From a virus (taxonomy: Duplodnaviria; Heunggongvirae; Uroviricota; Caudoviricetes): a stretch of 64,000 nucleotides of DNA. Where the stretch lies: IMG/VR virus record IMGVR_UViG_3300033993_001993. One strand, 5' to 3'. The translations under genes were made by a program, and so were the position numbers. Under the pieces are notes generated by a model. That model was not told where the DNA came from. It worked only from the letters and a program-made list of their open reading frames with translations, and did not search any database. Shown here piece by piece: positions 1,788-55,774 of the stretch. Every line of letters begins with the position of its first letter. Position 1 is the first letter of the stretch.

Positions 1788-2345
1788 TTAGTGTCTAATG
1801 TTATAATAGATCTCAGGTGCAATTATAAAATTGTTCGTGGTATTTTGTAATTTATCGACAAACTCAAAATCTTCACCATCGTCATTAGTGTCGAATAACA
1901 TATTAGGTATTGTAGTCTTAAACGATATTGATATACCAACTCGGTTTCTAATAAGATTGTTTCTTGAAAGTTCGGGAAATATCTTACCGTCGGTTGTTTT
2001 CATTCTCCAAACAACAAAATCATATTGTAAGTATTTTTCTACAAGTGTTTTAACATAATCTTCGTGTATTGTATCATCATCATCTAAGAATCCAATCCAT
2101 TCTGTTTCACACATTTTAATCCCTTCATTTCTAACTAACCCAGCATTTCCGTGTCTTTCCCCCTTTACTCCTAACTTTTCTATGTTGAATGTTCGTATTC
2201 TTGGGTCATTAAATTCTTTCCCGACAACTCCGTCGTAAAGAACAAAACAACTCCAATTTGGGTTAGTTTGATTAAGTAAGGATTGGATTGTATTGTCTAT
2301 TGTGGGTCTATTAATCGATGGTATTATAAATGTAATTAAATTCAT
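1788..2345 (-). CDS. Glycosyltransferase family 2
   Basis: N-terminal FIIPSINRP...LLNQT and a DxD motif GFLDDDD. Confidence 0.65.
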   Translation of the reverse strand: MNLITFIIPSINRPTIDNTIQSLLNQTNPNWSCFVLYDGVVGKEFNDPRIRTFNIEKLGVKGERHGNAGLVRNEGIKMCETEWIGFLDDDDTIHEDYVKTLVEKYLQYDFVVWRMKTTDGKIFPELSRNNLIRNRVGISISFKTTIPNMLFDTNDDGEDFEFVDKLQNTTNNFIIAPEIYYNIRH

Positions 2346-2352
2346 AAATGAC

Positions 2353-2655
2353 TTATTTTTTTCTCCCTTGACAATGAGCCTTCTGACTAAAACCTTTTGG
2401 GTTTTTACAATTTATTGATTTTTTATATTTTTCAGACCATTTTTCCTCAATAGGATCTTTAGATAATTTCTTCTTCCAAAACTTATAAAGATTTTCTTTG
2501 TCATATTTTTGTTCCTTCAGGTCCCAACCACAATCGTGGCAAAGGTATGGATGTCTATCACCCTCCTCTTTATTCCAAGAGTGTTCACATTTCTCACAAA
2601 CAATCTCGTCTTTGAATATTCTATCCGCCTGCTTTTCTGTTAGTATTATTTTCAT
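2353..2655 (-). CDS. Small zinc-ribbon protein, N-terminal MKIILTEKQ family
   Basis: CEKCEH...CHDCGW gives two CxxC pairs; likely start at the internal Met, which yields MKIILTEKQADRIF and removes the overlap with the upstream gene. Confidence 0.4.
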   Translation of the reverse strand: MKIILTEKQADRIFKDEIVCEKCEHSWNKEEGDRHPYLCHDCGWDLKEQKYDKENLYKFWKKKLSKDPIEEKWSEKYKKSINCKNPKGFSQKAHCQGRKK

Positions 2656-2656
2656 A

Positions 2657-2992
2657 TTAATCACAATTTCCATCTTCTTCCCATAAATTAACTAAATAAT
2701 TATAGTACTTATTATTTAGGTATGTTTCAACTTCTTCTCTAACCTCAATCATTTCATCAGAAGGTTCTCTGTAATCCTCATCATCTTCATCACAATAATT
2801 TTCATCACAATAATAAAAACTAATTCCTTGGTTTATACAAAAATCCGCATATTCTTCACCATCATCAAAATTACAAGGATCTTGTATTTCAGTTTGATAC
2901 TCAATTATATCACTTATTTTATCAAGTTCCACACCTCTTCGTCTGAACCTTAAACTCATCATTTGATTTTCACTTATTATTATTTTCATCAC
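2657..2992 (-). CDS. Hypothetical acidic protein, N-terminal MKIIISENQ family
   Basis: ORF with MMKIIISENQMMSLRF N-terminus and an acidic Cys-containing C-terminal half; ATGA overlap with the upstream gene. Confidence 0.4.
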   Translation of the reverse strand: MMKIIISENQMMSLRFRRRGVELDKISDIIEYQTEIQDPCNFDDGEEYADFCINQGISFYYCDENYCDEDDEDYREPSDEMIEVREEVETYLNNKYYNYLVNLWEEDGNCD

Positions 2993-3360
2993 CAGTTAAA
3001 GTCCTCTCTTGTATTTATTGAATTAAGTAGTTTTAACTTAAAGTTCCCTTTCCCTAAATATTCTCTCAAATGATATTCTAACTCATAGAGGAATCCACCA
3101 ACATCTAACGATTGAAAAATAGTTTCGTAATAAACAATAATCGATATTTCAATCATATTGTTTGTTTTATACACATTTACAACTTCAACTTTTGAAATTG
3201 ACTCTATTTGATCACAAACATCAAAACTAATAATCTCAGGGGCATCGGCGCCAAGTTCGTTCATCTTATTACATTTTTTTTTGATATCGTCAAATGACAT
3301 ATCAACCGTATTTTGAAATGTTATAGTTTTTAATTGTGATTCTGTAATTATTATTTTCAT
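2989..3360 (-). CDS. Hypothetical protein, N-terminal MKIIITESQ family
   Basis: The internal Met yields MKIIITESQLKTITFQN and an ATGA overlap (3357-3360) with the upstream stop; the longer ORF-track start at 3423 is less likely. Confidence 0.4.
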   Translation of the reverse strand: MKIIITESQLKTITFQNTVDMSFDDIKKKCNKMNELGADAPEIISFDVCDQIESISKVEVVNVYKTNNMIEISIIVYYETIFQSLDVGGFLYELEYHLREYLGKGNFKLKLLNSINTREDFNW

Positions 3361-3908
3361 ATCTCCACGTAATACACTAAAACCTTTATTCCCGTTCTCG
3401 GATATATTAATGAGTTTAAACAATCTTGTATAACTCCACTTACTTCACCCTGTATCTCAAATCCAACCTCATCATCATTCAAAGCATCTTCTAAAGATAA
3501 GTGTCTACCATCCATAGTGGTAACAGATCCCCCTTCTGATACTTGACACTCTATTTTATAAACATCATCTTTTACGTAAACATTAGTGATTCTCCAATCA
3601 AAGTCATACCCACCAACAAACATTTCAGGAAAATCTTTTGTTGAGAAGTTATTAATTGATAAGTTATCAATTATTTCCATAGTTTTTTCTTCTCCGCCAA
3701 TGTAATCATTGAAGAACTCACCATAGTCCCTAATATCCGTCCATCTATCTATACCGAAATAACCTAAGATATCTTCATCAAAAGTCGGGTAACCTTTCTC
3801 TTTAGTTTGTTTATCCCACATTTTTTTAAGAATTTCGGATTTACGAGTGGGTTTGTTTGAACTCTCAATCACCATTCTCATTTGAGATTCCGTGATAACT
3901 ATTTTCAT
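3357..3908 (-). CDS. Hypothetical protein, N-terminal MKIVITESQ family
   Basis: 183-aa ORF starting MKIVITESQMRMVIESS; ATGA overlap with the upstream gene. Confidence 0.4.
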   Translation of the reverse strand: MKIVITESQMRMVIESSNKPTRKSEILKKMWDKQTKEKGYPTFDEDILGYFGIDRWTDIRDYGEFFNDYIGGEEKTMEIIDNLSINNFSTKDFPEMFVGGYDFDWRITNVYVKDDVYKIECQVSEGGSVTTMDGRHLSLEDALNDDEVGFEIQGEVSGVIQDCLNSLIYPRTGIKVLVYYVEI

Positions 3909-4636
3909 TTTCTTAATGAATTGATTATCTCTTCTTGAAAGAAGTTGGTTATTTCAGGTTCGAGTCCATTTTCTTTTAAAATATCCTGTAATCTAACTTC
4001 TTCATCGAACACACTATAAAAGTCATAATCGGTTAGATAACCTCTTTTGTCTGTTGAGATAACCCCAAGGAATTCATCGCCCATATATTTTATCTCACCG
4101 AAGTAATTTATTTCCCCATCTGATTCATATTCTTCGGAAAACTCATAAGTTAAAGGAGTTCCGTGTCTTTCCCATCTAAATCTTTCACCCTCTCTTTCAT
4201 CTGGCATCATCTCTTGATCAAGATCGTAAACAAACTCTTCTGCGTTACCACCTTTATCAACAAAATTTTTAAACGACCTCATCATAGATTGTTCGGATGG
4301 TTTTAACTTTTCGCCTTCCTTAACTTTTTTGTATAAATCAAGAATCTGATCAAAGTTTTCATTTAGGGTTTCTTCAGAATTACCGTAATAATCTTTCAAC
4401 TGATCATTAAAAATATCTTCCATTGAATCCATTATACTACTATATATGTCCCAAAAATTATCTAACTCGTGGTCAGTATGTGACATATAGATATCTAAAG
4501 CCGAATCATATACTTCAGTAGCATAGTCTTTGAAGTCTTTATGATCCTCAACATTTATGAGAGATGTTGCCTCTTCAACATCACTTATAAGATCCTTATA
4601 TCTTCTTTTAACCCACATTTGCCCTGGTGTCATCAT
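3905..4636 (-). CDS. Hypothetical acidic protein
   Basis: 243-aa ORF, continuous with the operon, no family recognised. Confidence 0.35.
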   Translation of the reverse strand: MMTPGQMWVKRRYKDLISDVEEATSLINVEDHKDFKDYATEVYDSALDIYMSHTDHELDNFWDIYSSIMDSMEDIFNDQLKDYYGNSEETLNENFDQILDLYKKVKEGEKLKPSEQSMMRSFKNFVDKGGNAEEFVYDLDQEMMPDEREGERFRWERHGTPLTYEFSEEYESDGEINYFGEIKYMGDEFLGVISTDKRGYLTDYDFYSVFDEEVRLQDILKENGLEPEITNFFQEEIINSLRK

Positions 4637-5496
4637 ATCTGAATAGGTTTTTTAGTTTTATTATCGTAGATAGTAAAAGGATTTGCAATAATAACCCAAT
4701 CAACATAAGAGTAAGCATCTTTTCTATCCCAAGCTCTTTCTGAATTTTTAACCTGAATTGTTTTTGTTCCGTGAGTTGGGTGTGTCATTATTAGATCGGT
4801 ACCAAAAGTCATATCAATTAGATCACCATTACCTCCACTATATTCGGATTCAAACCCCATATCCTCTAAGGTTTCTTTAATTCTATTCTCAGCACTCTCA
4901 CCGATCGCACTTGCTCTTTGAATGTTTTTAGTATAATCCAATAGTACGTTAGGATCTTCAAAATACTTATCAACCAATCTTCCAATGTATGGTTTGATTT
5001 TTTTTAATCCTTCGGTTGGGTTATTAATGATAGATTGTATTGTGGGTTTAGCATTTTCACCACCTTTATAAATTAAATCCGTAATCAACTCAGAAAGATC
5101 CGAATAGTTGGTATTCAACTTATTAATTGGTTGCCATTCGCCATTTATGTAAACTAACTTACTTGAATTAACTTTGTTATTTATAAAGTATTCTTTTTGT
5201 TTCTCACTTATCTTACCTAATGATTGGAGTAGTTCCGCCCCCTTAATGAATTGTTGTTTCAAGGAATCAGGAACGTCTGTTTTAAGTTCTTCGGTTTTAT
5301 TGTTAATAATCCTTTTAAGTCCAAGTCCATCGTCTTTATGTAACCAGCTTTTTAATGATGCGATTTTTTTGCAAAGCAACATTTTTTGTTTGTTGTCCGA
5401 AAATCTCCCACACTCCATATACTCTGATTCGTTTAGAGTTTGGATCCTCATCACTTCTGAGATTCTTAATATCTCTTCTTTTATTAACTTTTCCAT
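4633..5496 (-). CDS. Hypothetical protein
   Basis: 287-aa ORF with 4-nt overlap to its neighbour. Confidence 0.35.
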   Translation of the reverse strand: MEKLIKEEILRISEVMRIQTLNESEYMECGRFSDNKQKMLLCKKIASLKSWLHKDDGLGLKRIINNKTEELKTDVPDSLKQQFIKGAELLQSLGKISEKQKEYFINNKVNSSKLVYINGEWQPINKLNTNYSDLSELITDLIYKGGENAKPTIQSIINNPTEGLKKIKPYIGRLVDKYFEDPNVLLDYTKNIQRASAIGESAENRIKETLEDMGFESEYSGGNGDLIDMTFGTDLIMTHPTHGTKTIQVKNSERAWDRKDAYSYVDWVIIANPFTIYDNKTKKPIQI

Positions 5497-5513
5497 TAAT
5501 GATAAATATTCAG

Positions 5514-6251
5514 TTAGAAGTTTAATGTAAAATTATGTTTTAGGACTTCCTCAACATAATTGTTATTGTGTGTAATTGTAATATCTTCATCATCTAAATT
5601 AATTAGTATCGACCCATTAGACCCTTCATTATTTTCCCAACCACCGTGAAACAAATCAATGACGTTGTAAGATATATCTTCCAATAGTGAATCCATTCTA
5701 ACTTCCCCTTTGTCAGTTTCCATAAAATCATTTATCCATCCTTCATCACCACTACCTTCATATGTTAACAAAATTTCATTACCATATTTAGTTTTTAATT
5801 CATTAATGAATTCCTTATCTAAAAACCTTTCACGTTTATTTGGGTTATTTTGACTATACCAAGGGTTAGGTATATTAGCTAAATCAACAAAAGTTTTGGT
5901 TACACTTGTTTCCTCAGAATTTAGTTCTGGATACTCATATGTCACAACAACTTGTCTATCTTGAGCATTAATCTCAAAATACAAAGTTCCAGTTTCGTTA
6001 TCATACATTTCATCATAAAAATTACTAGTGTCAAATCCTTCCACAATGTTGTCGAATAATTCTTCTATTGATTTAGGTATGAAACTTGGTTCATCAGTAT
6101 ACTTACCATTATAAAATGGTCCTCCTAAGTCATCCTCCCATTCACCGTCGTAATAATTTCTACTCCAACTTATCCCATCTTCTTCATTTAATGAGTTAAG
6201 TAATAATGAATATTTTTGTAGGTCTTTTTTTTGTATTTCAGTTAATTCCAT
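5514..6251 (-). CDS. Hypothetical acidic protein
   Basis: 245-aa ORF; TATTTATAA motif 13 nt upstream of its ATG. Confidence 0.35.
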   Translation of the reverse strand: MELTEIQKKDLQKYSLLLNSLNEEDGISWSRNYYDGEWEDDLGGPFYNGKYTDEPSFIPKSIEELFDNIVEGFDTSNFYDEMYDNETGTLYFEINAQDRQVVVTYEYPELNSEETSVTKTFVDLANIPNPWYSQNNPNKRERFLDKEFINELKTKYGNEILLTYEGSGDEGWINDFMETDKGEVRMDSLLEDISYNVIDLFHGGWENNEGSNGSILINLDDEDITITHNNNYVEEVLKHNFTLNF

Positions 6252-8175: not shown

Positions 8176-8205
8176 AATATTTTTATTATAAATATCATCG
8201 ACTTT

Positions 8206-11307: not shown

Positions 11308-12276
11308 TTAATATGATACGGTTGTTTTATACCCAGGAGCGATCAGATAATAGTTTTGTGATCCCCCACTTACAGGTGAGTTTATTGTTATTGATGACAC
11401 ACCAGGTATTGTTGATCTTAGATCTGATGTATTTGTCGTTAATGTTGTGTATTGTGCGGTTGTATATAATCTGGATGGACTCATATTAATCCAACCCCCT
11501 AATAAACCATATCGTCTAAGATTAATATAATTTTGATCGGCAACGTTTATTCTCCCATCATAGTTCACATCATATCTGTGGTAATGAATACTTTTAATTG
11601 GTGTAACACCTAATATTAATTTAGAAACTTCTACCATATCCGTAGTTTGTAGTGTAGTTACCGGTGTTGGAGCATCATATTGTATGTACCACTCAACCGC
11701 AGGACTTGTCGGTTGTGAAAAGTTATAGTACCCCGATGAGTTAGTGTAAACCGTTTGATGTAACACCCAAGGGGTAAAAGTCACAATATATTCAAACTCC
11801 AAAACATATGGTAATGATGTGTTAGGTAAATCATTCCATCTACCTCCTCCGACGAATTGAATGTAGTCCTCGTTACCGGCATTGTTTGGTTCTCCACTAT
11901 TCCAATACGACCAAGAATAAGGTTCACCCGTAACCCATCTCCACACACCTTCATTGACCTCATCGGTTAATCCGATCCACCCATTTGGCCAAAGGCTGAA
12001 TAGGAAATTGTTTTCGGCTAATGATGTTGAGGTAACTAAATGTCCCCCCATATTAATACAGGCTTGTCTTGCGTCCGTCCAAGTCATTGACCCTGTTGAT
12101 CTATAATATGAGTGCCCATTAAAGTTTTGTTGATTGGTAAATCCATTCATTACCGGTGTTGTTCTTTTATACAACTTAACAGGTACATTAACCGCGCCTG
12201 TTCCATCCGCATTATAAATGTATCCCGAATATGTAAAGGTTTGAGTAAACCCCATAAACGGAATCACAAATAACAT
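11308..12276 (-). CDS. Secreted C-type lectin domain protein (EPN/WND carbohydrate-binding motifs)
   Basis: WIGLTDEVNEGVWRWVTGEPYSWSYWNSGEPNNAGNEDYIQFVGGGRWNDLPN is a canonical CTLD long-loop signature. Start moved to the internal Met, which gives signal peptide MLFVIPFMGFTQ and removes the overlap with the next gene. Confidence 0.65.
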   Translation of the reverse strand: MLFVIPFMGFTQTFTYSGYIYNADGTGAVNVPVKLYKRTTPVMNGFTNQQNFNGHSYYRSTGSMTWTDARQACINMGGHLVTSTSLAENNFLFSLWPNGWIGLTDEVNEGVWRWVTGEPYSWSYWNSGEPNNAGNEDYIQFVGGGRWNDLPNTSLPYVLEFEYIVTFTPWVLHQTVYTNSSGYYNFSQPTSPAVEWYIQYDAPTPVTTLQTTDMVEVSKLILGVTPIKSIHYHRYDVNYDGRINVADQNYINLRRYGLLGGWINMSPSRLYTTAQYTTLTTNTSDLRSTIPGVSSITINSPVSGGSQNYYLIAPGYKTTVSY

Positions 12277-15309: not shown

Positions 15310-17220
15310 TTATTGTTTAATTATTCTTTCGAATGATGGAACTCCGTTCTCAACACTAAGTTTAACTATGTAAACCCCTGGTTCTAACTCACCTAAGTTT
15401 TTAGTGTAGTTATAAATCCCATCAGGTATTTGTGTGTCTAATATTGTAACTAACTTTCTACCAACTAAATCATATACCGATAGTGTTGCGTTTGTTGTCT
15501 CCTCAACTTTGAATGTGATTGTAACTTCGTCTTGATATGGATTAGGATATACTTCCATATTGTTATCGTTCAAGATGTTTCCACCTTCCATTTTTAATAC
15601 CTGAAGGATTCCGTTAGTTGGTGTTAAAGACAAATCACTTGAGTATGTAGTTCCAGCAAATTTTCTATTAGTGTACAAAGGACTTGCATCCCATAAGTTC
15701 TGTGGTTGTAACGCCAAGAATTGTATTATAACAACTTGATTACCATCTTTTAATGTGTTGTCATTATTTGTAGGATCAAACCCTCCCCATTCAATCTCGT
15801 TGTCGTTAGGGTTAACGTATGAAATCCATTTCATTGCCTCGGCTGATGATGTAATACCTTTAAATTGTAATAAGGTGTCATTGTATTTCAAACCAAATTG
15901 TAATGAACTTAATTCAATTCCATTTGTTATAACACTCACAGGAAGTTCAACTAAGTTACCAGCCTGAACTGAGATATTAGGAACATTTATTTCAATAGAT
16001 TGTGTTGGGAAATCGTATTCCACTTTAGTGTCAATAACATTGTATATTTGATTTTCTAAACCAGGTATTGGACCAACCACTACCTCAATAGGGGTTATAC
16101 GAGCCATATTATATCCTGTCCCATTTGCATCACCCGGTACCATCACATAATAAACAACTGAATCAGGTTGACCCGGTAGGATATCAAATGTAAAGTTAGT
16201 TACACCAGCAATTGATGAGGTGTAGTTAGTTGACGAACCATTAATTGTCGTATATTCCGTTGACGTAAAGAATTTAACATCTTTTGTATTGTTAGGCCAA
16301 GATGTAAATCTTCCTGAAACTCTACCAAACACACCCCAAACGTCTGAGATTGTTGTGTTGTTAGATCCGTTAACATCTGCAGTATAGTAATCAAACCCTG
16401 TCATTGTTCCGTTACCCAAAACCCATTGGTTTATTAATTGAGCATCTGTTGTTGATACAACATTACCAACACCCATAGTATCTCCTTTAACAGCTAAACG
16501 AACGTCCCAATATGTCGTATCCAATGGAACCGAAATATTAAAGTCTCCGTTATTATCCGTAACATAAACAGAATGTTGTGTCCAAGTTGATCCACCTGAT
16601 GGTTTTTTCTCTAACGCTAAAGTTAATGTTTTAGCTCCTGTACCAGTTACGTTTGTAAATGTTCCGTGGTAATCAAAGTTTACAGGTGTAAACACACCAC
16701 CATAGTTATGAACACTCAAAGTTGTATCCATACCATCTTGTTTTGCGGCGTATGGTGTAAACGTTTGAACTCCTGTCCAAGTTAAGTTACTTATTGTTGA
16801 TAAGTTATTAAATGTTGATGCTGGAGCGTGAGTAAATGTGATTAAGAATTTTTCACCGTTTGGTATAGTGTACGTAGAACTTGGACCAGTGTAACTTAAT
16901 GTCATTGTAATGTAACCATTCGCAGTGTTAGTCACATATTGAAGATCTAAGTTTGTTGTTGATCCTATCAAAGATACCGTTGCATTTGTAAATGCTACCT
17001 TATCATAAAATACTCTAAGCTGAACCCCAGCGAATTTTGTTAGGGTTGTATTTTGTAGTGTAATTTTGGCGGTTGTTGACCCTTGTGCTGAAGTCCCAAT
17101 CTGATATTGAGACGCAATGATACCCCACAAACCATTAGATGGTGCTGAAGGTACTTGTGATAACCCTATAAAAGGTAGTGATAATAACATTGTAAGGATT
17201 AACCCCTTAATTAATTTCAT
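15310..17220 (-). CDS. Large secreted/cell-surface protein with a T9SS C-terminal sorting domain
   Basis: N-terminal signal peptide; C-terminal about 80 aa (VYPNPYQDEVTITFKV...SVYDLVGRKLVTILD...GVYIVKLSVENG) match the Por secretion system CTD (TIGR04183-like). Confidence 0.6.
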   Translation of the reverse strand: MKLIKGLILTMLLSLPFIGLSQVPSAPSNGLWGIIASQYQIGTSAQGSTTAKITLQNTTLTKFAGVQLRVFYDKVAFTNATVSLIGSTTNLDLQYVTNTANGYITMTLSYTGPSSTYTIPNGEKFLITFTHAPASTFNNLSTISNLTWTGVQTFTPYAAKQDGMDTTLSVHNYGGVFTPVNFDYHGTFTNVTGTGAKTLTLALEKKPSGGSTWTQHSVYVTDNNGDFNISVPLDTTYWDVRLAVKGDTMGVGNVVSTTDAQLINQWVLGNGTMTGFDYYTADVNGSNNTTISDVWGVFGRVSGRFTSWPNNTKDVKFFTSTEYTTINGSSTNYTSSIAGVTNFTFDILPGQPDSVVYYVMVPGDANGTGYNMARITPIEVVVGPIPGLENQIYNVIDTKVEYDFPTQSIEINVPNISVQAGNLVELPVSVITNGIELSSLQFGLKYNDTLLQFKGITSSAEAMKWISYVNPNDNEIEWGGFDPTNNDNTLKDGNQVVIIQFLALQPQNLWDASPLYTNRKFAGTTYSSDLSLTPTNGILQVLKMEGGNILNDNNMEVYPNPYQDEVTITFKVEETTNATLSVYDLVGRKLVTILDTQIPDGIYNYTKNLGELEPGVYIVKLSVENGVPSFERIIKQ

Positions 17221-18803: not shown

Positions 18804-19529
18804 TTACTTTACACCCATTACTTCTTTTTTATAGTATTCTTCAAACCCATCTAAGTAGTTCGTAATACTTTTGCTGTTATCTACACCAATAACCTCATCA
18901 ATTAACCCAAAAGATAAAGCCTCATCTGAAGTATACCATCTATCTCTTGATGAGAAATCTAAAACTTCTTGGAATGTTTTCCCACAATTCTCAGCTAATA
19001 TCTTAAATAAGATGTAGTTGTATTTCTCACCTTCCATTTGGTCAATACGAGTGTCTTGGATATTTCCTCGTGTTCCGTGACTAACTTGGTGGGTCATTAC
19101 TTTTGAGTGGATAAGTGACGATCTTTTACCTTTTGTCCCTGATGATAATAGAACAGATCCCATTGACGCACACATACCCAAGTTTGTTGTAACGATATCT
19201 GAACTAACGTAGTTCATTAAGTCCACAATACCAAGTCCACACATAACAGATCCACCAGGACTATTAATGTAAAGGGTGATGTCTTTCTTTTCAACCGAAT
19301 CTAAAAACAATAATTGTGCTTGGACGATGTCTGACATATGTTGGTCTACCGGACCTGACAACCAAAGTATTCTATCTCTCATTAATCTTGAGAAGATGTC
19401 CATTTGAGTTACTCTCATTTCTCTCTCTTCCAAAATATATGGTGTTAATCCATTCTCAAACTGATCCAACGCCAGTGAACTAATTCCTTCGCTCTTTGCG
19501 AAACTTCTAAACTCTTTTCCGTAATCCAT
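18804..19529 (-). CDS. clpP: ClpP-family serine protease (probable prohead/scaffold protease)
   Basis: LYINSPGGSVMCGLGIVDLMNYV, CASMGSVLL and MTHQ blocks align with the ClpP catalytic Ser/His region. Confidence 0.75.
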   Translation of the reverse strand: MDYGKEFRSFAKSEGISSLALDQFENGLTPYILEEREMRVTQMDIFSRLMRDRILWLSGPVDQHMSDIVQAQLLFLDSVEKKDITLYINSPGGSVMCGLGIVDLMNYVSSDIVTTNLGMCASMGSVLLSSGTKGKRSSLIHSKVMTHQVSHGTRGNIQDTRIDQMEGEKYNYILFKILAENCGKTFQEVLDFSSRDRWYTSDEALSFGLIDEVIGVDNSKSITNYLDGFEEYYKKEVMGVK

Positions 19530-20211: not shown

Positions 20212-20493
20212 TTAATAAATTTTTATTGTTGGGTGTTCTATAATTTCAACGTGTTTCTTACATACTTGGTAATGTTTATCTAAAACTTCTTTGAGTAACT
20301 CTTCTTTTGTTTTACCATTATAATATGCGTAAAAACCACCATATCCCATATCAACCGAGTACCCAAGATACTTCCATCTGAACCATCCCTTTCTTTGGAT
20401 ATTATAAGATTCATCACTATTTTTTACAAATCTAATCTTAATTGTTTTCATATTTTTTAAAATTTTCTTTCCTTCATCATCCTTTTGAGACAT
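20212..20493 (-). CDS. Hypothetical protein
   Basis: 93-aa ORF. Confidence 0.3.
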   Translation of the reverse strand: MSQKDDEGKKILKNMKTIKIRFVKNSDESYNIQRKGWFRWKYLGYSVDMGYGGFYAYYNGKTKEELLKEVLDKHYQVCKKHVEIIEHPTIKIY

Positions 20494-21149
20494 TGTTTAA
20501 TTGTCTCACCTTTTTTAATGTTGTGTCCTGTACCATAAACGCCTCCTTTATATGAAGTAACACCTTTACCAATAGGTTTACTGAACTCAACATCAATACT
20601 TCGTTTTACTTTTCTAAAAAGTCGTGTCCACTTAAACATTAATGGTCTCCATTCTCTTTCCTCTAACTCACAAGTTGCTTCTGTCTCTTGGAACTCATCG
20701 TGAATGTAATAGTACTTATGGGTTTCTTTATGAATCTTTTCTTTCCATTCTTCACTATAAAAATCAATTTTGTTTTTTTTAGTGTGGTTGGCCCAAGTCC
20801 CATCTTTTAGGTATTTGGAGGTTCTTATCCAATCATATTGCCAAGGTAAATCAATACATTTTATTTTTTTAGTTCCCCTATAAATCCATAATGAATCAGG
20901 AAACCAACTACCTACCGAATAAAAATAAAAACCATATGTAGGTGTTTCATCCTTATATTTTGGCGGACGGTTTGTTTTAAATTTTAAATAAAACTGACCC
21001 CAAATAAAAGAAAAATCCAATTTCCAATCCAAACCATTACTTGGTAGGTATCTTACATTCCACTTACGGAACCCGGGATAAAACTCCATCCAATCATTTT
21101 TCCAACTAACATCTCTCGTGCCACCATCAACCTTTCTTAACCCTAACAT
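20457..21149 (-). CDS. Hypothetical Trp/Lys-rich protein
   Basis: 230-aa ORF. Confidence 0.3.
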   Translation of the reverse strand: MLGLRKVDGGTRDVSWKNDWMEFYPGFRKWNVRYLPSNGLDWKLDFSFIWGQFYLKFKTNRPPKYKDETPTYGFYFYSVGSWFPDSLWIYRGTKKIKCIDLPWQYDWIRTSKYLKDGTWANHTKKNKIDFYSEEWKEKIHKETHKYYYIHDEFQETEATCELEEREWRPLMFKWTRLFRKVKRSIDVEFSKPIGKGVTSYKGGVYGTGHNIKKGETIKQCLKRMMKERKF

Positions 21150-21281: not shown

Positions 21282-22529
21282 TTAATTTGATAAGGGTGCT
21301 TTAATACTTGGGTGTGATTGGTAGTTTTCCACCATAAAATCTGTTGGATTTAGGTGGTGGAATAGTGAATGATCCTCACTTAAAGATTTGTAGAACTCAT
21401 ACGTTTTCATGTGTTTTAAAAAGGGTAGTGGATATGGTTCTCTTGTTCTATTTGGAATATTATATTTAATGTAATCCTCATCTGTAATAGCCCGTAATTT
21501 ACTCATCTGTTGAGTTACTAATTCATATCTTTCATCTTCAGTCAAATCTCTACCAATCTGTTCTTTTGCTTGTTCGATATGGTTTGAATACAAATGAACA
21601 TCACCTAAATTACCAACCAATTCATCAGGAACCATATTCACTTCTTTCGCAATTATTTCCAATAACAAACCATAAGATGCAATGTTGAATGGTAATCCTA
21701 AGAATGTATCTACTGAACGTTGATTCCACATTAGAGAGATTGTTCGTTTAGGAATATTTGAATCATTTAATACAGATTCATCCTCAACAATTAATCTTCC
21801 ATTCCTATCATAGAAATCTTTCTTATTATCACTTTTATTTACAAGAAGTTTTGTTCTTTCTTCCAAACTCAACTCTCTTGTATAAACTTGAAATCCATAA
21901 TGACAAGGTGGAAGAACCATTTGGTCTAATTCTCCAACATTCCAAGCATTGACCATCAATCGTCTTGAGTCTGGGTTTGTTTTAAGGTCGTTGATTAGGT
22001 TTTGGATTTGGTCATTAACTCTAACATCTTCGTATTTAATAGGTACAAATGTATCCTCATCAAACTCAACAGCCTTTGTCGAAGTCCAACCTCTCCACTG
22101 CTTACCATAAATTGGGCCTAACTCACCCCACTTCTTAGCAAACTCATCATCTGTTTTAATTTTGTTGATGAATTCTTCTTGTGTCAATAACTGACCATCT
22201 TCATTGATGTAATCTTTTGGTGGATTAGATTTTTTTATAGGAAAACTATTCTTAAAGAACTTATAAGCGTCACCATCCCAAATATGACAACCGTTATCAA
22301 CAAGATATTTGATATTTGTATCACCACGAAGGAACCATAATAACTCGGTCACCATAGTTTTCCAAGCCATTTTCTTGGTTGTAAGTAAAGGAAACCCCTC
22401 ACTCATTTTATGACGGATCTGTCTACCGAATACTGAAATGGTACCAGTACCAGTACGATCACTTTTAGTACTCCCATTGTCCAAAATGTCTTGAAGTAAC
22501 TCTTGGTATTTTATGTCTAAATTATTCAT
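21282..22529 (-). CDS. thyA: Thymidylate synthase family (ThyA homolog with three insertions; Asn retained, so dUMP-specific)
   Basis: DRTGTGT, ELLWFLRGDTN, GPIYGKQWRGW, RRLMVNAWN, LPPCHYGFQVY (Cys nucleophile), RSVDTFLGLPFNIASYGLL, GDVHLYSNHIEQ and HPSIKAPL blocks are present. Insertions of about 55, 45 and 30 aa bring it to 415 aa. Confidence 0.85.
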   Translation of the reverse strand: MNNLDIKYQELLQDILDNGSTKSDRTGTGTISVFGRQIRHKMSEGFPLLTTKKMAWKTMVTELLWFLRGDTNIKYLVDNGCHIWDGDAYKFFKNSFPIKKSNPPKDYINEDGQLLTQEEFINKIKTDDEFAKKWGELGPIYGKQWRGWTSTKAVEFDEDTFVPIKYEDVRVNDQIQNLINDLKTNPDSRRLMVNAWNVGELDQMVLPPCHYGFQVYTRELSLEERTKLLVNKSDNKKDFYDRNGRLIVEDESVLNDSNIPKRTISLMWNQRSVDTFLGLPFNIASYGLLLEIIAKEVNMVPDELVGNLGDVHLYSNHIEQAKEQIGRDLTEDERYELVTQQMSKLRAITDEDYIKYNIPNRTREPYPLPFLKHMKTYEFYKSLSEDHSLFHHLNPTDFMVENYQSHPSIKAPLSN

Positions 22530-23737: not shown

Positions 23738-24044
23738 CTTTAATAATCCCTAATTCTTTTCTAAATTTTTTAATCTTAATCCTTGTTGCTTGGAATTCAT
23801 CTCCATCGTTTGCGCTATGACCATTCATAACCGCTTCAGTTATTTTCAATTCGTTATCAAGTATGAATGTCATTTTTTCCTGATTTGTTAATTCATACGG
23901 AACCACTTCCATTCTAATAAACTCTCGGATCATCGATCTAATTTTATCAATCTGTTCGTCTGGGTTTTTTTTGGACCCGTGAGACATAACAGATGTTTGG
24001 TAGATCGTCCTACTCAATTCCAATATTTTCTTATCAAATCCCAT
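23727..24044 (-). CDS. Hypothetical protein
   Basis: 105-aa ORF. Confidence 0.3.
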   Translation of the reverse strand: MGFDKKILELSRTIYQTSVMSHGSKKNPDEQIDKIRSMIREFIRMEVVPYELTNQEKMTFILDNELKITEAVMNGHSANDGDEFQATRIKIKKFRKELGIIKDGK

Positions 24045-25227
24045 CTTTATCCGTATTTCTAATTATACCTTCAACTCTACCCATATGATGGTAATGATCT
24101 TCAATCACTTCCTTAACATAATCTGTATGTGGTTTTGTCCAATTTTCTTGTCTATGATAGTAATCACCATAACCTTTAAGTTCTCCGCTTTTATCAGGTA
24201 ACTCTTTTATTTCTTTAACCCCATCTTTTACGACTTCATCAACAATACGTTCGGTATTGACCCATTCCTCCATTGGTTTAGCTACTTTAACGCCATTTTC
24301 AATAATGTCATCAACTCCGAGCTTAGTTCGTCGTAATGTACTATAAATTTCCTTTACCCCATTTTGGGTAGTATCTTCAACCGTTTTAAAGTGGTCAAAT
24401 TCAACCACTTTGGTGTCTTTCACACCATTTTGAATGGTATTTTCAACCGACCAGTTTATTTCCCAATCTATCTGACGGGTGTCTTTAACACCATTTTTAA
24501 TTGCGTTATCAATATTTTCAGTATTGTCCCATTGTCGTGGACCTATGTGTTTCACCCCATTTTCAATGGTATCTTTAACATATTCCTTCGCATTACACAC
24601 TCGACCGCTGGTTTCTCTCACCCCATTTTGAATTGTGTCTTCAACAATCCTTTCTTGTTTGAACCAATTCAGTTTGGTTTCTTTAACTCCATTTTGTATG
24701 GTGTCCTCAACACTATCTGTTCTTCCTGATTCCAATATATCGGTGTGTCTCACCCCATTTTGAATGGTATCTTCAACGACACGTATCATATCTAAGTCGA
24801 ACGACTCGGTGTGTTTCACCCCATTTTGAATGGTATCTTCAACTAACCTGCCATAACTCCCAAATGCTTCAAAGGTGTCTTTCACCCCATTTTGAATGGT
24901 ATCTTCAACTCTTTTTGTTACTCGGTGTTTGTAAGGTGAGGTATGTCCAATAGTTGGTTTATTCAAAAATCTTAACTCAAACCATTTGGATATTGTTTTG
25001 GTTTCATCCGCACATTTTTTTCCAATTAATTCTAATTCTGATTGGAAAGAGTTATAATTAAACCATAAAGTCCCTGACTCCGTAAATTCGGTTATCCATT
25101 TTTTTTCTTCGGTGAATATCAACCAAGTTGACCCTTGTTTTGTTATATACTTGTCAGATCCTTCAACCATTTGGTCAAACAACCTAAACATAAGTTTCTC
25201 TAATTTATTTCCTGATGGGTTTTTCAT
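24034..25227 (-). CDS. Tandem-repeat protein A: about 95-aa N-terminal domain + about 11 copies of a 22-aa repeat (core VEDTIQNGVKxT)
   Basis: Repeats read directly from the translation; paralog of the next gene (conserved N-terminus MKNPSGNKLEK...WLIFTEEKKW...). Confidence 0.6.
   Translation of the reverse strand: MKNPSGNKLEKLMFRLFDQMVEGSDKYITKQGSTWLIFTEEKKWITEFTESGTLWFNYNSFQSELELIGKKCADETKTISKWFELRFLNKPTIGHTSPYKHRVTKRVEDTIQNGVKDTFEAFGSYGRLVEDTIQNGVKHTESFDLDMIRVVEDTIQNGVRHTDILESGRTDSVEDTIQNGVKETKLNWFKQERIVEDTIQNGVRETSGRVCNAKEYVKDTIENGVKHIGPRQWDNTENIDNAIKNGVKDTRQIDWEINWSVENTIQNGVKDTKVVEFDHFKTVEDTTQNGVKEIYSTLRRTKLGVDDIIENGVKVAKPMEEWVNTERIVDEVVKDGVKEIKELPDKSGELKGYGDYYHRQENWTKPHTDYVKEVIEDHYHHMGRVEGIIRNTDKDGI
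24370..24915 (-). repeat. In-frame tandem 66-bp coding repeat array (about 36-bp conserved core + about 30-bp variable spacer)
   Basis: Near-identical units such as ttcaccccattttgaatggtatcttcaac recur with a 66-bp period (e.g. at 24746, 24812, 24878). Confidence 0.7.
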
Positions 25228-30810: not shown

Positions 30811-30864
30811 ATTAATATTATATAATATTGGTTAAATCAGATTCGGTTAGTTTGATAATTTTCA

Positions 30865-31200
30865 TTAGATCAATCCTTTTATTTCACTTTTTACTTTACC
30901 AAGTTCATTAAATTTAAATTCTTTACCAAATTTACTACCAACCTTTTTAACGGTTATTCCATCTTTTCGGAACATAACTTGTCCAACGTGTTTTCCATCA
31001 CAATGAATTTCAAAATCGTTACCAACTTGTTTTACTTTACAATCGTGTGATTTAATAAAGTTTTTAATTGTTTCTTGAAATCTATCGAGTTTAACGTCAA
31101 CATCCTTTTCCTTAACTCCTTTATCTGTTTTACCTTCTTGGATAACTCTTTGTACGATTCTAATTAAATCGGATTCTGTAAGTTTTACAATCTTTTTCAT
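30865..31200 (-). CDS. Hypothetical Lys-rich protein, N-terminal MKKIVKLTESDL family
   Basis: 111-aa ORF flanked by two copies of the same terminator hairpin. Confidence 0.35.
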   Translation of the reverse strand: MKKIVKLTESDLIRIVQRVIQEGKTDKGVKEKDVDVKLDRFQETIKNFIKSHDCKVKQVGNDFEIHCDGKHVGQVMFRKDGITVKKVGSKFGKEFKFNELGKVKSEIKGLI

Positions 31201-31255
31201 AATGATAAATATATGTTAACTACCATATATTCTCCATTATATGAGAATTAACATA

Positions 31256-37863: not shown

Positions 37864-38451
37864 TTAATCCCCATTAGTTAAAAAATTAATAATCTTTTCT
37901 TTAACGCCACATTGTTTAATACCTTCACTTGATTTTGGGGTTAAAACGAAATTACTAATTGCCCAAGCATCTTTCCAAGGTTCACCATTCTTACCCATAT
38001 TAAGATCGTCAACTGAAACCCAGTGTGTAACCTTAGGATGATCGTGTAGGTATTGTTGAATCTCAACGGTTCGTGTTTGTTCTAACTCCCATTGTGGTGA
38101 CCATATAAATAAATCACTATGAACAGTACAATTCTGAATGTTTGGAGTTAATGCGATTGGTCGTTTGATGATACCTTGACTTTCGTAGTAGTCACCAAGT
38201 TCTTCAAGTGTTGCGTGTAGTTTCCAATCTGAACTTACAACAATTTCACATCCTGTTTCTTCGATAATCTCATTCAATAACTTAATTGCCTTCTTATCGA
38301 AATCATCAAAACGATACTCAACAGGAGCTTCCTTTAAATTTGGTGATGAATCAGGATTCGCTGAACGATATTTCGCCCATTTTTTCTTTCGTCCACCCCA
38401 ATTATTAGAGAGACAAATTACACCATCGTTATCTAAGAAGAGTACTTTCAT
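37864..38451 (-). CDS. HAD-superfamily phosphatase-like protein
   Basis: N-terminal FLDNDGVI (DxDG motif I of HAD hydrolases). Confidence 0.4.
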   Translation of the reverse strand: MKVLFLDNDGVICLSNNWGGRKKKWAKYRSANPDSSPNLKEAPVEYRFDDFDKKAIKLLNEIIEETGCEIVVSSDWKLHATLEELGDYYESQGIIKRPIALTPNIQNCTVHSDLFIWSPQWELEQTRTVEIQQYLHDHPKVTHWVSVDDLNMGKNGEPWKDAWAISNFVLTPKSSEGIKQCGVKEKIINFLTNGD

Positions 38452-49670: not shown

Positions 49671-50909
49671 TTATCTCTTAAACTTAAACTCAGTTTCTAA
49701 TTTTGACTTACCGTGTTTTTTATCCATAAGTTTTTGATGTAATTCCCAATTAATTATAGATTCACTAACAGGTTGATCATCTTTAGCCATTGCATAAAGT
49801 TTACCTATTTTCTTCAACATTTTTGTTGCAATATAATTGAAGTTTTCAATTTCATCTTTGAAAAATTGTGTTGTATTACCTTTGTATTTTGAAATGTGGT
49901 TTGCAAACTTGTTTTTCAATTTGTCCATCTTTTTTTCTTCTTCATCGTCAACTAATGATGACCCCATTAAACCCCTAAATAACGATCTAAGTTCGTCTCT
50001 AGAATTACTAGTCATATCAATAAATGTTGACATTTTAGTATTAACTAAATTAATATACACTATTTCCAAAATTCTACGGATTTTTTGTTCCTCAGTAAGT
50101 TCAGACGGGTCCTCATCTATGTGAATAAGAACTTTATCCACCTTATCCATATCGTTACGTAAACCTTCAATAAGTTTCTCAAAAGTGAAATTCTTAATTT
50201 CAAGTAATTCTCTATACACCCTGTTATTACTTAGAAAGTCTTTAAACTGTGATTTTGTAATATTATCAGATTTAAGTTGTGATGCAACTTCAGTTGTTCT
50301 AACTAAATTTTCCGCAATAGTTGTATAATACAAATACCTCATAAAAGTACCGTCAATTATTGGAATACCAAAGCTACCGTAATTATGGGTTGCTCTGTAT
50401 TCAGCGTCTCTACCAATCAAATCAAGTTCTTTTGACTGTTTGTCATATTTGTGTTTTAATTCGTGAGCGATTGATCCCAAATGTTCTGATCTGTCCTCAA
50501 CATACACATCGTAAAGATCACTAGGTTCCCAATTTTCACCAACACCATATGTAATTTCAATTTCCGCGGTCTCTGATTTCTGAATTCTTTTCATCATTAC
50601 TTTTCTATCAAAATGAAAAGATTGACCCATACCCATAGATATAATAACAGGTTTACCTTTTATTTGTTTTGGGTATTCCTCAATATTAACAACAAGTTCA
50701 AAATCTTCGATATTTATTTTCTTTTTATCACCTAATTCAATATCAACCTCATTAGAAAATTCATATTTTTCGTCCTTAGTTGTGATACTTTTTAGATCTT
50801 GTCCGATTAAATCGTATATCTTTTCTGCAGCATCTAAAATAGAATCAGGAACCCCCAAGGCTTCCGTTATAAGTCGTAATTGATTTTCGGTAATGATAAT
50901 GTTTTTCAT
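49671..50909 (-). CDS. Hypothetical protein, N-terminal MKNIIITENQ family
   Basis: 412-aa ORF. Confidence 0.35.
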   Translation of the reverse strand: MKNIIITENQLRLITEALGVPDSILDAAEKIYDLIGQDLKSITTKDEKYEFSNEVDIELGDKKKINIEDFELVVNIEEYPKQIKGKPVIISMGMGQSFHFDRKVMMKRIQKSETAEIEITYGVGENWEPSDLYDVYVEDRSEHLGSIAHELKHKYDKQSKELDLIGRDAEYRATHNYGSFGIPIIDGTFMRYLYYTTIAENLVRTTEVASQLKSDNITKSQFKDFLSNNRVYRELLEIKNFTFEKLIEGLRNDMDKVDKVLIHIDEDPSELTEEQKIRRILEIVYINLVNTKMSTFIDMTSNSRDELRSLFRGLMGSSLVDDEEEKKMDKLKNKFANHISKYKGNTTQFFKDEIENFNYIATKMLKKIGKLYAMAKDDQPVSESIINWELHQKLMDKKHGKSKLETEFKFKR

Positions 50910-50935
50910 ACTAATAAATATATTGGAGTTGTAGT

Positions 50936-52058: not shown

Positions 52059-52277
52059 TTATATTCTAAATGTTCTAATACCTAAGTGTTTTTCAATAGC
52101 ATTTTTAGTATTATTACCACATATACCATCTTCGGATAAACCAGCATTAAAACATTTATTTAATGATGCTTGAATAGCCCTAACCTCATCATTTGTTTGT
52201 TCCATAATAAGTGCTGATTCAACAAGATTTTGTCTTAATTTACTATATTGTTCTTTAGTTAATTTAATTTTGCTCAT
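52059..52277 (-). CDS. Small peptidoglycan-binding-domain-like protein
   Basis: IQASLNKCFNAGLSEDGICGNNTKNAIEKHLG resembles the PG_binding_1 repeat. Confidence 0.3.
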   Translation of the reverse strand: MSKIKLTKEQYSKLRQNLVESALIMEQTNDEVRAIQASLNKCFNAGLSEDGICGNNTKNAIEKHLGIRTFRI

Positions 52278-52301: not shown

Positions 52302-53237
52302 TTAGTTAGCCCAATTTTTAATATTGTCTTGAGATATTTTTGTATCAACTTTTTGATCTTGAGTGGCTCTCCAATCATCCGCAAATTGTTCTTCATCTTG
52401 TGATCCACCACCACCAACAACTGAACAACCTTTAGATTTTAACGCTTTTAATGCCTCTTGGTAGTCAAATCCATATCTATCACCTCTTCCACCTCCTCCA
52501 CCAGGAATAACAGGTGGGTTTGTATTGTCAACAGGTGGTTTTGTACCATCAGATGTCTTTTTATTACATTTCCATCCGGATTTTTTCCATGCCTCAACAC
52601 TACTAAAACCACATTTTTTAGCTTTATCTAAGTAAAAATTTTTATTTGCCTTTTTAGTGTTACTTATAAGGGTAGTGATTGGTAACCAAACGTGACTTCT
52701 CCAATCGTCATCACCATCAATGTCACCGTCTAAAGCGTCATATAATGTTTCTCCACGTCTCCTATAATATAATGAAGCCATCTTACATAAATCAGGTATT
52801 GTCAATAATTTATTTAAATTTCTTTCTATCCCTTCAAGATTTGTATTTCCAAGTCCAGCAACCGCAGAATATATATTATCAGCAATGTCCGTTAATGCCC
52901 CGTCAGAATTTTTTGTTTTCCCCAAATTACCTTTTTGAGTTCTACATTTTTTTAGAACTCCAAGTACGTTATCCGCAGCACCTCCACCAGTTGTGAACCA
53001 ACCAGCAACACCACCAACAACGGTACCTACTACAGCACCAATAGCCGTTCCAACAACAGGAACAATACTACCTACCGCAGCACCTGTTGCGGCTCCAGCT
53101 CCCGCACCAGCAGCAACTCTACCAATATCTTGGCCGGTATCTTCACTTATATTTTCTCTTTCTTCTTGAATTTTTTTCTTATGTAGAGTAAGAATACGTT
53201 TAGATTCTTCCTCCGTTAATACAAATTTCTTCTCCAT
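52302..53237 (-). CDS. Gly/Ala-rich glycine-zipper membrane protein
   Basis: GAGAGAATGAAVGSIVPVVGTAIGAVVGTVVGGVAGW segment and polyglycine stretches. Confidence 0.3.
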   Translation of the reverse strand: MEKKFVLTEEESKRILTLHKKKIQEERENISEDTGQDIGRVAAGAGAGAATGAAVGSIVPVVGTAIGAVVGTVVGGVAGWFTTGGGAADNVLGVLKKCRTQKGNLGKTKNSDGALTDIADNIYSAVAGLGNTNLEGIERNLNKLLTIPDLCKMASLYYRRRGETLYDALDGDIDGDDDWRSHVWLPITTLISNTKKANKNFYLDKAKKCGFSSVEAWKKSGWKCNKKTSDGTKPPVDNTNPPVIPGGGGGRGDRYGFDYQEALKALKSKGCSVVGGGGSQDEEQFADDWRATQDQKVDTKISQDNIKNWAN

Positions 53238-53283
53238 AGTGTATTTTTTTTATTATATAAATATACGGCAAATAAAAAAAGGT

Positions 53284-54072: not shown

Positions 54073-54497
54073 CTGTGATTTATTTCTACAAATATAGTGA
54101 ATCTTTTCTAATGAAAAAAATATTTAGAACTTTTTTTATGATATTTATCAATATGAAAGTTAAAATAAATGATAATCTTTTTAATGTTAAAACCGTAATA
54201 ACGTCAAAGGACACTCAGAATGGTATGATGAATCGTAAATTTAATGATTCCTATGATGGTATGTTATTCTTTATGGAAAACGGACCACACTCTTTCTGGA
54301 TGAAAAATTGTGTGGTTCATTTAGATATCATTTTTATTAACGATGATGTTATCACAAAAATACATCACAACTGCAAACCTTGCCTATCTGACGATTGTAA
54401 CCACTACGAAGGTAATGGTGAAATGGTTTTAGAGTTACAAGGAGGTGATTGTAAAAAATATGGTATTAAAGAAGGTGATACAATATCGTTACTTTAA
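54057..54497 (+). CDS. DUF192 (COG1430) family protein; true start probably 54111 or 54153
   Basis: DGMLFFMENGPHSFWMKNCVVHLDIIFIND...VLELQGGDCKKYGIKEGDTI matches the DUF192 core. Confidence 0.5.
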   Translation: MLILPSVIYFYKYSESFLMKKIFRTFFMIFINMKVKINDNLFNVKTVITSKDTQNGMMNRKFNDSYDGMLFFMENGPHSFWMKNCVVHLDIIFINDDVITKIHHNCKPCLSDDCNHYEGNGEMVLELQGGDCKKYGIKEGDTISLL

Positions 54498-54692
54498 CGA
54501 ATCAAAGAATTGTTGTACCGGATCACCACCAGATAATTCATCATCTTCCGAATCCATTTCTACTTCTTTACCACCTAACAAATTACCAAAAATGCTTGAC
54601 GAATCTTTAGTTGGTTTTTTAGTGTCTTCGCCATCCTCAACCTGTTCTACAATCTTTTTAAATTGTTTTTCTGTTATTAAATAATTTTTCAT
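54489..54692 (-). CDS. Small acidic protein, N-terminal MKNYLITEKQ family
   Basis: 67-aa ORF. Confidence 0.3.
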   Translation of the reverse strand: MKNYLITEKQFKKIVEQVEDGEDTKKPTKDSSSIFGNLLGGKEVEMDSEDDELSGGDPVQQFFDSLK

Positions 54693-54704
54693 CTACTATA
54701 AATA

Positions 54705-55567: not shown

Positions 55568-55774
55568 TTACGCTATTGTTTCTAAATAATCCCACACTTC
55601 ATTTGAGAACTCCTCAAAAAGGTCTCCATCCTCATCATTTGATAAATCAACAATGAATTCATCGACACAAAAGTCTACAATTATTTCGTGAACTTCTCCT
55701 AATGTTTGTTCGTCATTTTTTAATCCCTCATATTGATTAAGGATCTGATTTTTTTGTTCTTCCGTTAATTTCAT
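55568..55774 (-). CDS. Hypothetical small acidic protein
   Basis: 68-aa ORF. Confidence 0.25.
   Translation of the reverse strand: MKLTEEQKNQILNQYEGLKNDEQTLGEVHEIIVDFCVDEFIVDLSNDEDGDLFEEFSNEVWDYLETIA

Follow-up and report, generated by a model that had tools for sequence, protein, structure and literature searches.

Background

Phage proteins carried in the head act first in infection, for example in anti-restriction, host takeover and passage of the cell wall, and are normally found through virion proteomics of cultured phages. The internal proteins of phage T4 (IPI-III) share only a capsid targeting sequence (CTS) of about 10 residues, MKTYQEFIAE, next to which the prohead protease makes a single cut, and the CTS is sufficient to package foreign proteins in the head (PMC8442874, PMC3012670, PMC5694885). 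Here we describe a 64,000-nucleotide stretch of the IMG/VR virus record IMGVR_UViG_3300033993_001993 (the window), in which otherwise unrelated proteins share an N-terminal segment of about 16 residues (the tag), a candidate for a propeptide of the T4 kind.

In the T4 record, the proteins processed by the protease gp21 include Alt (MELITE), gp67 (MEGLIEA), gp22 (MLKEQLIAEA) and gp24 (MAKINELLRES). Head and ejection propeptides of phages phiKZ, 201phi2-1 and SPN3US are cut after S/A/G-x-E by a gp21-like protease (PMC5694885). A repeated element of another kind, the promoter-early stem-loop (PeSL), has been documented to mediate gene shuffling in T4-type phages (PMC2839356).

An N-terminal tag shared by unrelated proteins

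At least ten of the approximately 105 genes in the window carry the tag (A-H, J and K; Table 1). The original prediction had named seven open reading frames (ORFs) with a common N-terminal motif, four of them adjacent and one using an internal Met. All seven are present on the minus strand with the N-termini given for them, the four are indeed adjacent (D, C, B and, as the last, A), and the C-terminal parts were rightly called unrelated, since the cargoes of the window fall into different BLAST clusters. The shared motif itself is real, with a conserved unit of about 16 residues rather than nine and a membership of at least ten rather than seven. The internal start is that of gene C, within the ORF 2989-3423, for which the Joint Genome Institute (JGI) gene call also gives 123 amino acids (aa); gene A likewise starts at an internal Met, within the ORF 2353-2673.

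A profile scan of N-termini, which the original prediction had put forward as a check, was made with a hidden Markov model (HMM) of 17 positions, trained on 106 tagged proteins from other contigs with the sequences of the window excluded. Nine sites in the window scored 10-21 bits. Each coincides exactly with the Met of a real gene, and all lie on the minus strand; the maximum in a reversed six-frame control was 4.2 bits. The codons of conserved residues differ synonymously among the tags of the window (ACA/ACG/ACC, ATA/ATT/ATC, TCA/TCT/TCC), which argues for selection on the protein and not on the DNA, and identical DNA runs between the tags are only about 10-14 nucleotides (nt) long. Among orthologues of F with homology over the whole length, about 57 of 58 loci have kept the tag. 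A lack of conservation at the protein level, which the original prediction had named as the outcome that would speak against it, is contradicted by the synonymous codons and the F orthologues alike.

Anatomy of the tag and of its junction with the cargo

Anchored on its invariant Glu, the tag has the consensus M-K-I-I-I-T-E-S-Q-[Y/L/F]-[K/R/N]-x-[L/I]-x-E. At positions outside the pattern used in the database search described below, an aromatic residue or Leu stands at position 10 in 68%, Leu or Ile at position 13 in 88% and Glu at position 15 in 38%. All profile hits begin at the initiator Met, and conservation covers residues 1-16. We read the tag as a short strand (K-I-I-I) that leads into an N-capped amphipathic helix. 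AlphaFold models F with coil at residues 1-7 and helix at residues 8-18, in both cases with a predicted local distance difference test score (pLDDT) below 50, and is confident of the fold only from about residue 21 onwards.

The tripeptide I/L-T/S-E at residues 5-7 is near-universal, partly by construction of the search pattern. In 52% of the proteins a second site, [LIVMF]-x-E, follows within residues 13-16, its Glu being 8 or 9 positions beyond Glu7; elsewhere in the same proteins the figure is 2.5% per position (an enrichment of about 15 to 20-fold). The residue after the second site is mostly Ser, Ala, Asn, Asp or Gly. The tag thus carries sites of the kind that gp21 cuts, as had been proposed for I-T-E, while the proposed propeptide of seven residues, with its end at Glu7, probably falls short of the whole unit, because conservation runs to residue 15-16 and the second site is enriched.

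In two families the leader and the cargo can be told apart. Members of the DHH family always start their cargo with SGIR, ahead of which stand the leaders MKIIITESQYKMLIKE, MKKKLITE, MKKGILVE and MKSLIKKVLQEEVKGILTE, the last on the contig of the window itself, to the left of the window. In the F family the cargo starts with A-[L/V/M]-G-[V/I]-P, and the leaders (the arrow marks the junction) include ..LITE↓ALGVP, ..KKVLRE↓AVGIP and ..NVLSE↓AMGVP; the most distant orthologue (34% identity) starts MREIIKNVLSE↓AMGVP and is without the MKIIITE.Q part. In both families the length and type of the leader vary and the junction is constant, namely hydrophobic-x-Glu followed by Ser or Ala. A fixed junction with a variable leader is what a cleavable leader predicts and thereby supports a propeptide; we regard it, as read from the sequences, as probably the strongest internal evidence for cleavage.

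A second leader type, MKxLI(K/R)xILxEEV.., was seen on other proteins, among them two in the left flank of the window's contig (locus L259, 17718-18359 and 15843-17384) and others in L067, L133 and L129. Some proteins of the DHH and F families have it in place of the main tag, and it, too, ends in hydrophobic-x-Glu. In the pair P0133/P0139, one of the two proteins has a tandem double tag at its N-terminus, and the other, which is Ala/Arg-rich and from a different lineage, starts MKITESQLRRIVRR and keeps the tag in the form MKITESQLRRIV. Because this Ala/Arg-rich relative carries the tag, the tag is not confined to AT-rich genomes.

Distribution and cargoes

IMG/VR was scanned with a degenerate DNA pattern encoding MKIIITE(S/T)Q, which was found at at least 119 loci, many of them on contigs of 140-320 kb. 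Among bacterial and archaeal genomes totalling 596 Gb, the same pattern occurs at only 4 loci, of which three lie on contigs of just 3-4 kb from metagenome-assembled genomes. Its frequency in viral contigs exceeds that in this much larger cellular collection more than 30-fold. The tag is specific to viruses, being almost absent from cellular genomes.

The retrieved loci encode 283 distinct tagged proteins, which fall into 108 mutually dissimilar clusters when the first 20 residues are removed; some homologues of these unrelated cargoes are untagged or have other tags, which underlines the modularity of the arrangement. A Pfam census with one representative per cluster gave mostly no match. Single matches were obtained to a sigma-70 factor, a phage lysozyme, a cell-wall hydrolase, YkuD, a peptidoglycan-binding domain, a pterin dehydratase, a DHH phosphoesterase and a few domains of unknown function. 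The F family has 1,169 members in a large protein collection, all unnamed and none with a Pfam domain. A 30-residue N-terminal profile had too little power against 1.84 billion proteins, giving 21 hits of which several were unrelated L-T-E-x-Q helix-cap repeats, and a full-text literature search for ITESQ returned only noise.

A T4-type head module in tag-bearing relatives

A search of the retrieved loci for T4 gp19-gp24 revealed a T4-like portal and a gp21-like protease in two tag-bearing loci, L136 and L165. In the relatives, Pfam gives 259 bits for Portal_T4, 243 bits for Gp23 and 80 bits (cut-off 27) for Peptidase_S77, the family of gp21, and the proteases align to T4 gp21 with the conserved motifs NRN.R.YP, HP and SSRG.GS. 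Over 160 loci the order of the module is p474, (p340, p284), large terminase (TerL), portal, (p259), p145, S77 protease, scaffold, capsid protein and p274.

The tag is found within this module. The p284 gene, directly upstream of TerL, starts MKIIITESQYKKLLSE or MKIKLTESQY.., and L165 has two tagged paralogues in the interval from portal to protease, a place taken in T4 by the prohead core genes 67 and 68. Tag-like starts or sites were also seen in p474 (MKRKNIISEVTKRVLSE, MKRKNIISEVTKRVLSEKVRIKRISEA), p274 (MRIKKKYVLLES) and the scaffold (MAEKKKSIIEEALLEAKSLED). The 257-kb contig IMGVR_UViG_3300042455_001086 carries an F orthologue (L045) and an S77 protease (L275) together, and a gene just to the right of the window encodes a 414-aa protein with 33% identity to p474.

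In the relatives, the genes for portal and large terminase (L165 22-2730; L275 15-3017 and 4085-8104) are much lengthened, with products of 902, 1340 and 1001 aa. By eye, the insert in the L165 portal resembles an intein with an HNH-type endonuclease, and GIY-YIG endonuclease genes occur within the head module of relatives.

A candidate head-targeting propeptide

We lean towards reading the tag as a head-targeting propeptide in the manner of T4, about 16 residues long and processed by the S77 protease. The strand K-I-I-I and the N-capped helix T-E-S-Q-Y/L-K-x-L/I-x-E that follows it would dock the protein on the scaffolding core during prohead assembly. The gp21-family (S77) protease would cut after hydrophobic-x-Glu, with the main cut presumably at the end of the tag, at Glu15/16 before Ser, Ala, Asn, Asp or Gly, and may also cut at Ile-Thr-Glu7; the cargo would then remain in the head and enter the host with the DNA. 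We infer docking, cleavage, packaging and injection alike from facts of sequence. A number of cargoes fit ejected proteins, namely lysozyme, cell-wall hydrolase, YkuD, peptidoglycan-binding and glycine-zipper membrane proteins and a sigma factor.

Several observations weigh against such a propeptide. The pterin dehydratase and DHH phosphoesterase cargoes are without an obvious role in the virion, the cargoes are mostly acidic (median isoelectric point 5.2), unlike the basic internal proteins of T4, and the tagged genes are numerous, at about a tenth or more of the genes in the window. The second site is present in only about half of the tags, and conserved residues 8-14 would be needless if Glu7 were the sole cut. 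No head gene was found in the window or its 10-kb flanks, and the link to the S77 protease runs via relatives whose F is only 42% identical. The only similarities of the tag to the T4 CTS (PMC8442874) are MK and the final hydrophobic-x-Glu, with no detectable homology. Finally, a promoter-like element shared with head genes (ATATTTAT, discussed below) also precedes 16% of other genes and so adds little.

With more reserve, and with the chances slightly against it, we suggest that the tag could be the address label for the whole packaged and injected protein set of abundant uncultured freshwater T4-related jumbo phages. More than 100 cargo families would in that case be loaded into the head via one signal of about 16 residues and delivered into Bacteroidota cells, among them peptidoglycan hydrolases, glycine-zipper membrane-active proteins, a sigma factor, phosphoesterases and many ORFans, and the injected arsenal of an uncultured phage could be listed by reading its genome. 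Head targeting as such would allow dozens of packaged proteins per genome to be named from metagenomes in a widespread uncultured phage group, would make this T4-type packaging system far larger than that of T4 itself, and would provide a second short signal for loading foreign proteins into capsids. Whatever the mechanism, one tag on more than 100 unrelated families is a strong experimental handle.

Alternative explanations

The tag might instead be a general docking or oligomerisation handle, kept on the protein, for a phage or host partner unrelated to the capsid, such as an assembly chaperone, a membrane complex or a replication compartment. The amphipathic helix, with its T-x-x-Q/E capping box and hydrophobic residues at positions 10, 13 and 14, would suit such a role, as would the retention of Leu/Ile13 in 88% even without Glu15, the high diversity and mostly acidic character of the cargoes, and the presence of DnaJ, ClpP and an AAA ATPase on the contig. 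We consider a handle of this kind unlikely, because it leaves unexplained both the hydrophobic-x-Glu directly before the cargo at varied tag lengths and the tagged genes between portal and prohead protease, and no candidate partner was identified.

The element ATATTTAT bears on a different alternative. Of its 12 copies on the coding strand in the window, eight stand 4-19 nt before a start codon (Table 1). It precedes E, F, G, H and I, at a distance of 4-5 nt from the ATG in E, F, G and I, and the copy at 5502-5509 heads the unit formed by I, a 243-aa gene, D, C, B and A. In the window together with L179, L190 and L275, the spacing to start codons has two preferences, 4-5 nt and 14-15 nt, of which the shorter suggests mRNAs with little or no leader. 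Neither a sigma-70-like site above chance nor a terminator or terminator-like stem-loop was found in 2000-6000. In head modules ATATTTAT stands before the protease in 80%, before p259 and p274 in 100% and before terminase, portal and scaffold in about 50%; it precedes 34% of tagged genes against 16% of other long ORFs (odds ratio 2.7). Its value as a shared late promoter, in evidence of co-expression with head genes, was downgraded in view of these 16% and an enrichment of only twofold. We take ATATTTAT to be a common promoter class in these phages, lending weak support to co-expression with head genes.

Conservation of the tag could, then, reflect expression or gene shuffling, the start region being either tuned for leader-poor mRNAs or a promoter-plus-start recombination linker of the PeSL type. 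The close spacing and doubled frequency of ATATTTAT at tagged genes would agree with this, as would the tandem arrays of tagged genes, which leave remnants. It is nevertheless improbable, since the amino acids are kept while the codons vary synonymously, genes A-D and J keep the tag inside operons without a promoter of their own, and the Ala/Arg-rich relative retains MKITESQLRRIV; flanking stem-loops or terminators are lacking, and the shared DNA runs are short. A PeSL-like mobile regulatory cassette was rejected, as the conservation lies in coding sequence and no stem-loop is present in 2000-6000.

Turning to proteolysis, the original prediction had pointed to the ClpP of the window as a possible head protease, and this part does not hold. 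The protein matches cellular ClpP models over the full length of the models (Pfam 182 bits, NCBIfam 182-222 bits), reaches 63.6 bits with the ClpP-related head-maturation model NF045542, whose cut-off is 120, and has non-structural neighbours (endolysin, small ORFs, Acb3, ThyA) with no portal or capsid gene among them. It was rejected as the tag-processing enzyme on these grounds and is best read, from its matches and neighbours, as an auxiliary ClpP outside the tag system as far as visible. A full-length DnaJ is encoded just right of the window (L261 1459-2385); with ClpP in the window and DnaJ beside it, the phage has protein quality-control genes of its own.

These genes raise the alternative that the tag acts at the N-terminus as a signal for degradation or unfolding, which would set the time at which phage proteins are removed, through ClpX or ClpA with the phage ClpP or through DnaK/DnaJ. 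Met-Lys followed by three hydrophobic residues is loosely like the Met-basic-hydrophobic class of N-terminal ClpX signals, reportedly described by Flynn et al. in 2003. We judge such a signal slightly less probable still than an effect of expression or shuffling: the best-conserved part, T-E-x-Q with the helix, is in no known degron, the spacing misfits the ClpX motif, head-module genes carry the tag, and the fixed hydrophobic-x-Glu junction is left unexplained. That the tag is a chance product of AT-rich codon usage, to which the G+C content of about 32% and the frequency of MK.. starts in such genomes might point, can be dismissed as next to impossible given the score of the independent profile over its control, the retention of the tag by whole-length F orthologues and the excess of the DNA pattern in viral contigs.

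Tagged genes and other features of the window

Table 1. Tagged genes and further features of the window. Arrows mark the tag-cargo junction; profile scores are from the HMM.
Feature	Positions	Strand	Length	N-terminus and tag	Profile (bits)	Remarks
A	2353..2655	-	100 aa	MKIILTEKQ, MKIILTEKQADRIF	20.8
B	2657..2989	-	110 aa	MKIIISENQ, MKIIISENQMMSL	11.5	acidic cargo
C	2989..3360	-	123 aa	MKIIITESQ, MKIIITESQLKTI	20.8
D	3357..3908	-	183 aa	MKIVITESQ, MKIVITESQMRMVIE↓SSN	17.7
I	4633..5496	-	287 aa	MEKLIKEEILRISE		tag resemblance weak only
Remnant of tagged gene	30818..30865	-	15 codons	MKIIKLTESDLTNII, stop		immediately after E
E	30865..31200	-	111 aa	MKKIVKLTESDL, MKKIVKLTESDLIRIVQRVIQE↓GK	10.1
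F	49671..50909	-	412 aa	MKNIIITENQ, MKNIIITENQLRLITE↓ALGVP	14.9
J	52059..52277	-	72 aa	MSKIKLTKEQY, MSKIKLTKEQYSKLRQNLVE↓S	3.6	weak variant immediately after H
H	52302..53237	-	311 aa	MEKKFVLTEEES, MEKKFVLTEEESKRIL	14.2
G	54489..54692	-	67 aa	MKNYLITEKQ, MKNYLITEKQFKKIVE↓QVED	18.7
K	55568..55774	-	68 aa	MKLTEEQKNQIL	13.9	shortened variant
ATATTTAT before starts	5502-5509, 8188-8195, 28693-28700, 31205-31212, 50914-50921, 53257-53264, 54698-54705, 59668-59675	-
ClpP	18804..19529	-				cellular-type
Host-like envelope proteins	15310-17220, 42286-43848, 39719-42280, 38645-39640, 11308-12276	-
Acb3	20457-21149	-				CBASS inhibitor, Pfam match of 106 bits
Thymidylate synthase	21282-22529	-	415 aa			Pfam match residues 7-351
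Neighbouring paralogues	24034-25227, 25231-26493	-	397 aa, 420 aa	M-x-N-P-[S/T]-G-N-K-L-E-K
RNA-repair genes	37864-38451, 46643-47764, 48037-48459, 50936-51592, 51589-51987	-
Glutamine synthetase	56311-57456	-				phage gene

The C-terminal parts of the window members matched no Pfam or PHROG family, except for a glycine zipper in H, a membrane segment of the kind known from tape-measure proteins and tail lysins. The cargo of A has CxxC...CxxC zinc-finger-like motifs and homologues in other contigs. In D the second site is V-I-E at residues 13-15. The variant tag of E is one residue longer; where the window has a remnant after E, a second tagged reading frame is intact in the relative P0126, which shows that tagged genes are rapidly gained and lost. 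The cargo of F is a strand-plus-helix fold in the AlphaFold model (pLDDT 70.8), which has no PDB match at E ≤ 0.001. Orthologues of J start MKKIQITEDQYRKIK.

The window has a G+C content of about 32%, and its tightly packed genes are coded almost wholly on the minus strand. The sequence is also found in a 91.5-kb JGI metagenome contig and in several contigs of the European Nucleotide Archive. Searches with Pfam, PHROGs and NCBIfam identified no virion genes in the window and showed an auxiliary or early-type gene content: glycosyltransferases, a dTDP-sugar epimerase, a non-specific endonuclease, a GH19 endolysin, ClpP, an Acb3-like inhibitor of the cyclic-oligonucleotide-based antiphage signalling system (CBASS), thymidylate synthase, HNH and GIY-YIG endonucleases, a Band-7 protein, a TonB-dependent receptor, an SprB-repeat protein, two proteins with a type IX secretion C-terminal sorting domain, an RNA-repair set, a DNA methylase, glutamine synthetase, thioredoxin and glutaredoxin. 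The RNA-repair set comprises a Swiss-army-knife RNA repair HAD domain, an RNA ligase, a cyclic-phosphate receiver domain, a metallophosphatase and an AAA_33 kinase-like protein. In thymidylate synthase the Pfam match covers only 246 profile positions, which implies an insertion of about 100 residues. The neighbouring paralogues with a common start (Table 1) gave no family match above the curated cut-off.

The source is a large uncultured freshwater phage of distant-T4 type. Megablast of 10 kb of the window found no close cultured relatives, and tblastn of F and of the 21-aa consensus tag against 50,697 phage records found no cultured relatives either; p474 matched only two huge uncultured phages in the same records. 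The nearest cultured capsid proteins are those of Microcystis phage Mel-JY01, Flavobacterium phage immuto and Rhodothermus phage RM378, with 37-43% identity over 40% of the protein. The host is probably a member of the Bacteroidota, as judged from these capsid proteins and the type IX secretion domains, and also because the phage encodes host-like envelope proteins. The latter (two with type IX sorting domains, the TonB-dependent receptor, the SprB-repeat protein and a C-type lectin) may possibly serve in remodelling of the host surface.

Comparison with known systems

The principle of a short head-targeting leader is known from T4; the consensus, scale and lineage of the present tag are not described in the literature searched. 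With the ClpP-family prohead proteases the window has in common that it also encodes a protease of the ClpP fold, which differs in fitting cellular models best and in not lying beside portal or capsid genes. The PeSL cassettes of T4-type phages (PMC2839356) likewise place a repeated element, with promoter-like sequence, at the 5' side of ORFans in variable regions. They are, however, non-coding elements with a stem-loop, conserved at the DNA level, whereas the tag is conserved in the protein, with variable codons and no stem-loops.

The jumbo phages phiKZ, 201phi2-1 and SPN3US are similar in that dozens of head-internal proteins are processed at x-x-Glu, and in having paralogues with identical N-termini and a diverged remainder (PMC5694885). 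Most of their propeptides exceed 100 residues; no N-terminal consensus unites the families, and the cut follows a small residue-x-Glu, whereas the present tag is short and uniform, with a hydrophobic residue at P3.

The T4 CTS and propeptides resemble the tag as short N-terminal segments (10-20 residues) on unrelated, fast-evolving proteins that end in hydrophobic-x-Glu. The genes of both systems are clustered and turn over rapidly, the gp21 substrates Alt, gp67, gp22 and gp24 of T4 have starts of a similar style, that of Alt even reading M-E-L-I-T-E, and the tag lineage has, as seen in relatives, a gp21-family protease, a T4-type portal and a T4-type capsid protein. The analogy with the CTS drawn in the original prediction therefore stands in part, on circumstantial grounds (head module, sites and junction), without sequence homology to the CTS; judged by its sequence, the tag is an analogue and not a homologue of it. 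MKIIITESQ-YK-L-E differs from MKTYQEFIAE and often has two candidate sites. The internal proteins are basic in T4, the cargoes of the tag mostly acidic, and packaging and cleavage are predicted for the tag. The two also differ in scale, with the tag on at least 10 genes in 64 kb and on 108 cargo families, as compared with about five tagged proteins in T4.

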